From Gemmatimonadota bacterium (lineage in GTDB: Bacteria > Gemmatimonadota > Gemmatimonadetes > Palauibacterales > Palauibacteraceae): 64,000 bases of DNA. Below the pieces are notes generated by a model. That model saw only the letters and a list, made by a program, of their open reading frames with translations. It ran no database searches and had not been told where the DNA came from. The stretch's first letter is position 1; the number at the start of each line of letters is the position of its first letter. This document shows positions 22,213 to 23,060 of this stretch, piece after piece. The position numbers and the translations under genes were made by a program. The stretch covers positions 2,080,001 through 2,144,000 of the forward strand of contig OY762926.1 in the NCBI GenBank assembly GCA_963666735.1. Reading direction: 5' to 3'.

Positions 22213-22336
22213 GGGGGGATTGACTCACCTGCTTCGCAGATTCGTCGAGCTCGCGCCCGTTGGTCGCTCGGTTGGCTTCCTCCCGCTCCGCGGGACTCGC
22301 CGAGCTCGCTCCCTCCGGTCGCTCGGTTCGAACCCC
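22213..22336 (-). repeat. Duplicated tRNA-Ser(CGA) T-arm carrying modules A (22222-22271) and B (22274-22326) in the T-loop
   Basis: + strand reads GGGGGGATT-[A]-TT-[B]-TTCGAACCCC, versus the intact tRNA GGGGGGATTCGAACCCC. Confidence 0.85.
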
Positions 22337-22343
22337 TTCCTAG

Positions 22344-22425
22344 CGGAGAGGGGGGGATTCGAACCCCCAAGCCCGTGAGGGCGCCGGTTTTCGAGACCGG
22401 TGCATTGCCGTTCTGCCACCTCTCC
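22344..22425 (-). tRNA. tRNA-Ser(CGA)
   Basis: GGAGAGG/CCTCTCC acceptor stem, CT-CGA-AA anticodon loop in a CCGGT/ACCGG stem, long variable arm, GGTTCGAATCC; CCA not encoded. Confidence 0.93.
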
Positions 22426-22484
22426 GAGTGCCGGCCACCGGGATGCTGGCGAAAGCCTGAGACACCCGGTACGCGCGACCGGGG

Positions 22485-22514
22485 AAGGTGCTCCGCGAGG
22501 GCTCCTGCTGTCAA
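22485..22514 (-). promoter_or_regulatory. Putative sigma70 promoter for tRNA-Ser(CGA)
   Basis: TTGACA-18 nt-CACCTT, about 60 nt upstream of the tRNA; the -10 element is weak. Confidence 0.4.
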
Positions 22515-22543
22515 ACTTTCGGGGCTGCCGCGGAGTGTTGCGG

Positions 22544-22838
22544 CGGAGGGGGTGGGATGGACTCACCTGCTTCGCAGATTCGTCGAGCTCGCGCCCGTTG
22601 GTCGCTCGGTTGGCTTCCTCCCGCTCCGCGGGACTCGCCGAGCTCGCTCCCTATCGGTCGCTCGGTTCGAACCCACGAGGGGCAGCCTCTTCGGCCTGCC
22701 TCGTGGATACTGCTCAACGGACGGGGTGGGATTGGCTTCCTCCCGCTCCGCGGGACTCGCCGAGCTCGCTCCCTCCGGTCGCTCGGTTCGAACCCACGAG
22801 GGGCAGCCTCTTCGGCCTGCCTCGTGGATACTGCTCAA
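22544..22838 (-). repeat. Two tandem tRNA-Ser 3'-end duplications with T-loop inserts (A 22560-22609 and B 22612-22665; B 22734-22786) and identical 37-nt spacers
   Basis: Spacer 22681-22717 equals 22802-22838. CGGACGGGGTGGGATT recurs at 22718 and 22839, 121 nt apart. Confidence 0.88.
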
Positions 22839-22926
22839 CGGACGGGGTGGGATTCGAACCCACGAGGCAGGGTTGCTGCCCACACGCTCTCCAGGCGTGC
22901 GCCTTAGTCCGCTCGGCCACCCGTCC
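22839..22926 (-). tRNA. tRNA-Ser(GGA)
   Basis: GGACGGG/CCCGTCC acceptor, CACGC-CT-GGA-GA-GCGTG anticodon arm, long variable arm, GGTTCGAATCC. Confidence 0.93.
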
Positions 22927-22955
22927 AAAAAAAACGCCTCCGGGTGTGCCGGAGG
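22927..22955 (-). terminator. Intrinsic terminator-like hairpin with T8
   Basis: Minus strand CCTCCGG-CACAC-CCGGAGG-CG-TTTTTTTT. Confidence 0.65.
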
Positions 22956-22967
22956 TATTGCTGCAGG

Positions 22968-23060
22968 CGGAGGGGGTGGGATTGACTCACCTGCTTCGCA
23001 GATTCGTCGAGCTCGCTCCCTTCGGTCGCTCGGTTCGAACCCACGCGACTCTTTCGAGTC
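22968..23060 (-). repeat. Duplicated tRNA-Ser(GCT) variable arm, T-arm and acceptor 3' strand with module A (22984-23033) in the T-loop
   Basis: CGGAGGGGGTGGGATT-[A]-TTCGAACCCACGCGACTCTTTCGAGTC nearly matches 23081-23121. Confidence 0.88.

Follow-up and report, generated by a model that had tools for sequence, protein, structure and literature searches.

Two-hairpin modules in duplicated tRNA T-loops of a Gemmatimonadota genome, a likely minimal form of the tRNA-linked repeats of Escherichia coli

The closest described counterparts of the elements studied here are the tRNA-linked repeats (TLRs) of Escherichia coli, one of which, RtT, is processed to a discrete small RNA. First described in 1978, TLRs number 22 in K-12, each defined by an 18-19 bp copy of the 3' end of the upstream tRNA or 5S gene; their function was given as not known as of 2021, and Egan & Landy 1978 and Rudd 1999 are cited as describing them (PMC8144298). 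The rrA, rrB, and rrF TLRs are transcribed, processed, and bound by Hfq and CsrA (PMC8144298).

Tyrosine-integrase islands, bounded by attL and attR, resemble the present locus in that the tRNA 3' end is duplicated and the gene is kept intact, but the modules described here carry no cargo or integrase, split the T-loop with a conserved structured insert, and use another crossover. The ends of IS200/IS605 elements and the REP/REPIN-RAYT systems form single-stranded DNA (ssDNA) hairpins, lack terminal inverted repeats, join at a sequence-defined point without clear duplication, and include non-autonomous units. The modules are like them in all these respects, as far as their predicted fold goes, but here there is no Y1 transposase, the site is strictly the tRNA T-loop, and a long antisense arm to the target is present. 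Finally, Ssn GIY-YIG nucleases act with NTS/SRM hairpin repeats, and the word "tRNA" is not found in the main text describing them (Chenal et al. 2025, PMC11893778). The likeness lies in short ssDNA hairpin repeats implicated in recombination or transformation; the modules differ in having no SRM motif, no stand-alone GIY-YIG gene, and no hundreds of dispersed copies.

The array and its junction in the T-loop

The window, that is, the whole stretch of DNA analyzed, comprises 64,000 nt of a Gemmatimonadota genome assembled as one contig of 3.98 Mb. Its minus strand carries tRNA-Gln, Ser(GCT), Ser(GGA), and Ser(CGA) (ARAGORN for the Ser genes, and Rfam); an Rfam scan of the window named the tRNAs and nothing else. 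Upstream of the cluster, also on the minus strand, are what we take from their translations to be genes for a GntR-like regulator (23964-24983), a PolX-PHP DNA polymerase (25032-26807), and an NAD-dependent DNA ligase (26807-28960). Six inserts of 50, 50, 50, 53, 54, and 53 nt lie within four partial tRNA-Ser 3' copies, one behind Ser(GCT), two behind Ser(GGA), and one behind Ser(CGA). Each is flanked by GGTTCGAA (or an earlier module plus AA) on one side and AATCC on the other, with CA in place of AA at 22559. A sequence-only reading of this DNA had listed these inserts, sorted into types A and B, together with the four copies and two stacks of B and A; all of its positions, lengths, and flanks, including the substitution at 22559, are exact. 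The parts are as follows.

23079..23166, minus: intact tRNA-Ser(GCT), host gene of unit 1 (ARAGORN, Rfam)
23062..23072, minus: degenerate inverted copy of the tRNA 3' tail, GGAGGCGTGGG (from the sequence)
23035..23060, minus: Ser(GCT) copy, variable arm, T-stem 5' strand, and T-loop to A58 (sequence comparison)
22983..23034, minus: module A3, hairpins 1 and 2, 52 nt with both end bases counted (22984-23033 in the sequence-only reading), 77.8 bits
22965..22982, minus: 18-nt tail identical to the Ser(GCT) 3' end from A59
22929..22955, minus: terminator-like hairpin and T run after unit 1, putative terminator (from the sequence)
22838..22927, minus: intact tRNA-Ser(GGA) (ARAGORN)
22816..22827, minus: unit 2, 12-nt antisense copy of the Ser(GGA) variable loop and T-stem 5' side
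22788..22806, minus: unit 2, sense copy of the Ser(GGA) T-stem 5' side and T-loop to A58
22733..22787, minus: module B3
22718..22732, minus: unit 2 tail, Ser(GGA) 3' end from A59
22695..22706, minus: 12-nt antisense copy of unit 3, itself a tandem duplicate of unit 2
22667..22685, minus: unit 3, sense T-stem/T-loop copy
22611..22666, minus: module B2, stacked
22559..22610, minus: module A2, stacked, last base C
22544..22558, minus: unit 3 tail, of GCT/TGA type though behind Ser(GGA)
22343..22425, minus: intact tRNA-Ser(CGA) (ARAGORN)
22328..22340, minus: unit 4, short T-stem/T-loop copy
22273..22327, minus: module B1, stacked
22221..22272, minus: module A1, stacked
22211..22220, minus: Ser(CGA) 3' tail, truncated

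A unit thus runs from an antisense or direct copy of the 5' side of the host T-arm through GGTTCRA and the module to a tRNA tail extending from the T-loop to the 3' end. Identity of the tail to the upstream tRNA 3' end covers 18 nt in unit 1 and is longer in unit 2; the tail of unit 3 comes from a sister Ser gene, and that of unit 4 is shortened to about 9 nt. The GCT/TGA-type tail behind Ser(GGA) is a sign of exchange between units.

The array is not an assembly artifact: contigs from two sequencing runs of two studies (X2 and X5; X2 may itself be the source) cover the unique junctions with 0 differences, and many relatives, single-contig genomes included, have arrays of the same kind. The repeated parts of the array have 2-3x depth, and as no one contig spans the whole array, the order of the copies is taken from the assembly. 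A run from a third study (X9) holds a strain with a different array make-up. That difference, the tail at 22544-22558, and the chimeric module halves described below show that arrays shuffle, in line with the earlier suggestion of growth by repeated insertion or recombination.

The breakpoint is exact and common to all 83 parsed junctions, with A59 kept on the right (in this set, units of Ser(GGA) appear under the label Ser(GCT), and 3 rows either have gaps or are run-throughs parsed wrongly). The base before A59 is A in 64 and C in 19 of these 83 junctions, and T in two metagenome cases. The AA on both sides of the inserts had been taken for a repeat of the target dinucleotide. A target duplication is not supported: only the second A is constant on the right flank (83/83), and E. 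coli TLRs lack the left AA. Rather than a fixed position, the site tracks the first AA of the loop, falling between 58 and 59 in TTCGAAT loops and between 57 and 58 in TTCAAAT or TTCAACT loops. AA is present at the site in each of the 11 types of target tRNA for which the parent gene is visible, compared with 28 of the 48 parsed T-loops of this genome; in E. coli, Tyr, Pro, Lys, and Arg have TLRs, and Val (TTCGATC), in the same operons, has none. All this is most simply explained if a module that begins with A and ends with A or C was inserted bluntly into the first A-A step of the T-loop; stacks then need no rule of their own. Alternatively, a 2-bp core common to both module ends could give the same join.

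Module fold, antisense arm, and distribution

Types A and B are one family. They have their first 26 nt in common, and module halves recombine freely, with 97 distinct modules built from 38 and 68 halves (two mis-parsed included). Hairpin 1 has the form C-GA-GC-GA-NN-loop-NN-GA-GC-GA-G, and hairpin 2 has a covarying 3-bp closing stem. The central tandem GA/GA is present in 17/25 and is swapped for Watson-Crick pairs in others (GA/TC or GC/GC). Across 53 sequences, 85.6% of cells are paired versus 71.0% in shuffles (0/500), bearing in mind that these sequences also served to draw the structure and that kin are not independent; two-sided changes occur in 10 of 14 pairs, and slid controls give 22-36%. 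C(GNA)G loops cap 37 of 41 distinct hairpin-2 and 13 of 26 distinct hairpin-1 sequences. GCGNAGC mini-hairpins gain much of their stability from being DNA, the RNA forms being far less stable (PMC13037366), and this points to a fold of single-stranded DNA, which is what we predict for the modules. Folding of single sequences with standard energy models was no better than that of shuffles in 8/8 folds (z -0.85 to +1.17). Terminal inverted repeats are absent, with 0-2 of 10 end bases complementary.

Two further observations concern small structures near the junction. In some relatives, the spacer before the module behind Ser(GCT) carries a second small hairpin type (GTGGGGCG-GTA/AAA-CTCC; four loci). 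At one locus (L086:4160-4240), the left T-loop reads GGTTCGC and the module has a matching change (GAGCTGCG), hinting that T-loop bases may pair with the module.

In units at Ile, Ser(GGA), Met, Thr, and Arg, the split T-loop is preceded by a spacer with 10-17 nt of reverse complement of the host variable loop and T-arm. This antisense arm measures 10-12 nt in 15/15 Ile spacers, 12-13 nt in 10/12 Ser(GGA) spacers, 12 nt at Met, and 15-17 nt at Thr(CGT) (5/5), although for the Thr and Arg arms a non-cognate control reaches 13-15 nt. Nine arm bases, CGACCTCAC, are invariant in 16/16 otherwise divergent Ile spacers. The arm still matches the intact tRNA gene while the neighboring sense copy decays. 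Units at Ser(GCT), Ser(TGA), Ser(CGA), Leu, and Glu have a weak arm or none.

Of the ten modules in the genome, six are in the window, another two follow Ser(TGA), and the remaining two are at tRNA-Ile(GAT), so that all four Ser genes and tRNA-Ile are covered. A pattern joining the T-loop or stack junction to the module head matched ten times in the 3.98 Mb, always beside tRNA-Ser or tRNA-Ile, and its reversed control had 0 hits in 145 genomes, which excludes a chance origin. The sequence-only reading had proposed a non-autonomous, structured element that targets the T-loop, and this is supported: the modules contain no genes, and 10/10 copies lie at tRNA genes; the scatter of an ordinary REP or MITE is not seen, with zero copies away from tRNAs. 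Its restriction to Ser does not stand, given the Ile copies here and modules at Met, Leu, Arg, Thr, Glu, and Gly elsewhere. That intact tRNAs are never interrupted is true by definition, yet full-length copies that come with their upstream region do get split, as at Ile here, at Ser(TGA) in three relatives (G013, G017, G143), and at Arg(CCG) in another (G139).

On inspection, 28 of 36 genus genomes have modules, at Ser, Ile, Met, Leu, Arg, and Gly. Sites directly behind the intact gene are filled in 9/25 genomes for GCT, 13/26 for GGA, 11/23 for CGA, and 11/16 for TGA, where "empty" includes sites with an island next to the gene and two cells of one genome are excluded; the empty and filled orthologous sites looked for are thus both found. 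Filled sites hold 1-5 modules. The same head occurs on unclassified metagenome contigs at Arg(ACG), Arg(CCG), Thr(CGT), Glu, Leu, and Ser, some of these modules having four hairpins. Named records with the junction pattern belong mostly to Ca. Palauibacter and other Gemmatimonadota, and the read sets carrying modules include sponge metagenomes. Among 151 drawn genomes of the phylum, model R1 gave real hits only inside the genus, four others being chance coding matches; as the strict filters scored just 35 candidates per genome, this is weak evidence of absence outside it. Chance also accounts for three pattern hits that lay outside the genus at the order level and for one in another genome (G001). 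Three scans of viral contigs gave chance hits or enterobacterial tyrT repeats, and plasmids and phages gave matches of 21-34 nt only.

Several arrangements are of interest in themselves. In this genome, outside the window (G000:C1:2985090-2985790), tRNA-Ile(GAT) has on its upstream side a full-length copy into which a three-hairpin module is inserted, and on its downstream side a split fragment, an arrangement also present in three relatives (G016, G020, G138). In two genomes (G013, G143), a fabF-like gene stands between the module unit and a second, full-length, module-split Ser(TGA) copy; in two others (G011, G020) it stands behind an unsplit tRNA without a module. One contig labeled Acidimicrobiia has a Ser(TGA) locus near-identical to that of the genus and is probably mis-binned. 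About 13 of 121 module heads break inside the module, at varied positions, into unrelated DNA, and modules may be breakpoint hot spots.

Likeness to TLRs and candidate enzymes

The claim that the modules belong to no described family is not supported, since their layout and motifs match those of E. coli TLRs; the T-loop anatomy of TLRs appears undescribed. In K-12 (NC_000913.3), the TLRs at tyrT, proK, lysT, and argV end GAGT(A/C)-ATCC (the dash marks the junction) and continue with a tail from A59, those at tyrT and proK begin GGTTCGA-YTCGAGC..GCGAG, and an inverted T-arm copy lies upstream of those at tyrT, proK, and lysQ. One E. coli TLR end, GGCGAGCGAAGCGAG, has the very sequence of hairpin 2 in genus modules. 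The metagenome modules with four hairpins run collinear with the units of E. coli and have their head in common with the window modules.

Model R2 was built from just 7 metagenome modules with four hairpins; no sequence from E. coli or the genus went into it. Of its 15 hits in 98 kb of DNA from E. coli enriched for TLR loci, the 12 best were TLR units; in the window, the four module units were the top 4 of 31; and in the whole K-12 chromosome it gave 2 hits only, the proK and argV TLRs. Model R1 likewise placed TLRs first in the enriched 98 kb, yet found nothing in the whole of E. coli. Taken one by one, the TLR matches are weak, with E-values of 0.02-0.3 in the 98 kb (best 0.023) and about 2-5 genome-wide (best 1.95). 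The Rfam RtT model (RF00391, gathering threshold 45 bits) had no hit in the window at E<=10 and scored 27.7 bits on one bridging module (L143), below that threshold, so that the modules do not qualify as RtT.

The window units lie downstream of tRNA genes, inside the tRNA operon, as in the definition of TLRs. Also shared are tandem copies, a tail of the host tRNA 3' end starting at A59, and GNA hairpins. The modules differ in having two hairpins (three at Ile) versus four in E. coli, in their size (44-70 nt versus about 75-80), in stacking module on module, in occurring in another phylum, and in falling below the RtT threshold. Judging from these comparisons, the modules are probably relatives of TLRs and work like them; they are real, conserved, and out of the ordinary but not without precedent, being probably a minimal variant of an old family. 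We found no literature with the T-loop insertion anatomy of TLRs, which Egan & Landy 1978 and Rudd 1999 may describe; in PMC8144298, the terms T-loop, T-arm, mobile, insertion, and hairpin have 0 occurrences. Raised mobilome coverage at tyrT/rttR has been reported, in a preprint that puts RNA-gene signals down to RNA/DNA hybrids (bioRxiv 10.1101/2024.07.17.603846).

No recombinase gene lies near the array, as had been noted; none is in the window, and none lies near any module of this genome. The eight tyrosine recombinases of the genome (XerC/D-like plus 6) are all elsewhere, and none is flanked by a module. Of the HUH/RAYT, IS200-like, or tyrosine recombinase genes that the sequence-only reading had thought worth seeking, none lies beside a module in this genome. 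Searches of it for Y1_Tnp found 0; for IS110, 2 broken fragments only; for DUF559, 1 weak hit; for reverse transcriptases, 2 of group II intron type; and for stand-alone GIY-YIG proteins, none, with 2 hits in frames of 859 and 393 aa. Six shorter GIY-YIG hits in the genus have neither tRNA nor module beside them. Among 57 open reading frames around 24 metagenome module loci there was one IS1595 transposase and no recurrent nuclease, and no excised or circular module form was seen in the contigs examined.

Three known classes were rejected on these grounds: a REP/REPIN or IS200-derived element, as the cognate Y1 (HUH) transposase is absent from this genome; a MITE of the terminal-inverted-repeat type, as such repeats are lacking and the 10 copies are all at tRNAs; and an Ssn/SRM system, as the degenerate SRM motif has 0 matches at three module loci and a stand-alone GIY-YIG gene is absent. 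Separately, in 7 of 36 genus genomes a degenerate IS200/Y1-like gene sits between the same two housekeeping genes. It does not track modules, two of the seven carriers having no module seen. The one protein read apparently lacks the HUH and tyrosine motifs, and the gene could possibly encode a domesticated ssDNA-binding protein.

Competing explanations and significance

Because targeted searches did not find an enzyme, a role at the RNA level is a serious rival. Here the units would be host-selected pre-tRNA trailer RNA, in which the arm and the spare tail permit an alternative fold and processing at the spare 3' end frees a small structured RNA (as for RtT and RrA/B/F), with spread by local duplication and gene conversion only. 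The modules do lie on the sense strand within tRNA operons, the antisense arm keeps its complementarity to the intact tRNA as the local sense copy decays, and predicted folds pair the 5' acceptor strand of the tRNA with the downstream spare tail at Ser(GGA) and Ile. The processing and protein binding of the rrA/B/F repeats (PMC8144298) and, weakly, a metatranscriptome contig of a relative that runs from tRNA-Gln to Ser(GGA) with a module fit as well. The triloops, however, are typical of DNA and are not GNRA tetraloops; 0-5 copies per site and absence from 8/36 genus genomes argue against a dosed function; and the precise colonization of many tRNAs and the split full-length copies are left unexplained. 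We regard this explanation as rather unlikely, though to be taken seriously. That the modules are GNA-hairpin repeats of the REP/SRM kind, arrived at independently and with no common ancestry with E. coli TLRs, would suit the modest E-values to TLRs and the frequency of GCGNAGC motifs in unrelated repeats (short matches to haloarchaeal plasmids). The collinear hairpin order, the identical breakpoint, the (A/C)-ATCC end, and the four-hairpin intermediates all tell against it, as do the lack of an SRM match, of terminal inverted repeats, and of dispersal, and such convergence seems to us improbable.

Integrase islands need separate mention. At six loci in relatives, islands of 10-20 kb lie between the intact tRNA-Ser and the module unit, with a crossover at CACCCCCTCCG. 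The modules might be att scars or decoys of tyrosine-integrase islands entering tRNA genes; P4-like integrase islands do occupy the same tRNA-Ser genes in several relatives, and the module heads that break off into unrelated DNA (some 13 of the 121) could be read this way. But the crossover of these islands falls in the 3' tail, and the whole unit is moved farther downstream, so the unit predates them and the two are separate events. Moreover, no module flanks any of the genome's tyrosine recombinase genes, and scars would be expected without compensatory change. We find an att origin very improbable.

The reading we prefer is that the inserts are two-hairpin modules placed in the first A-A step of duplicated T-loops, likely a minimal form of TLR with a predicted ssDNA fold, and probably put there by a rare site-specific enzyme acting in trans. 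Taken as a whole, we give it about an even chance. On a displaced or lagging sense strand, the GNA-capped hairpins would form, and the antisense arm would pair with the adjoining tRNA gene, marking the A-A step of the T-loop for strand transfer. First colonization of a tRNA gene would then be a site-specific cut-and-join on single-stranded DNA, perhaps guided by the arm. Joining in the order tail-spacer-module would leave the upstream gene whole, the common case, and the other order would put the split into a full-length copy on the upstream side (Ile here, Ser(TGA) in G017, and Arg in G139). After seeding, ordinary recombination between repeats of 50-120 nt would suffice for arrays to gain or lose modules and to exchange halves, with no dedicated enzyme.

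A broader proposal, and one that we hold to be unlikely as it stands, is that TLRs are the visible part of an unrecognized class of mobile ssDNA elements that spans phyla. Such elements would have no genes, bring along an antisense guide to the tRNA gene next to them, and be inserted at the A-A step of the T-loop by an undescribed enzyme acting in trans, the two-hairpin module being the minimal working unit. The analysis recasts TLRs as T-loop-splitting modules, with a conserved, predicted DNA-type fold, a fixed A-A join, and an antisense arm, that are common to E. coli and a sponge-associated lineage of Gemmatimonadota. This makes two questions testable in E. coli K-12, namely the identity of the protein that cuts or binds the folded strand, and the level, DNA or pre-tRNA, at which the antisense arm acts. 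A guided insertion enzyme that spares the tRNA, if it exists, would be of interest as a tool for safe-harbor integration.
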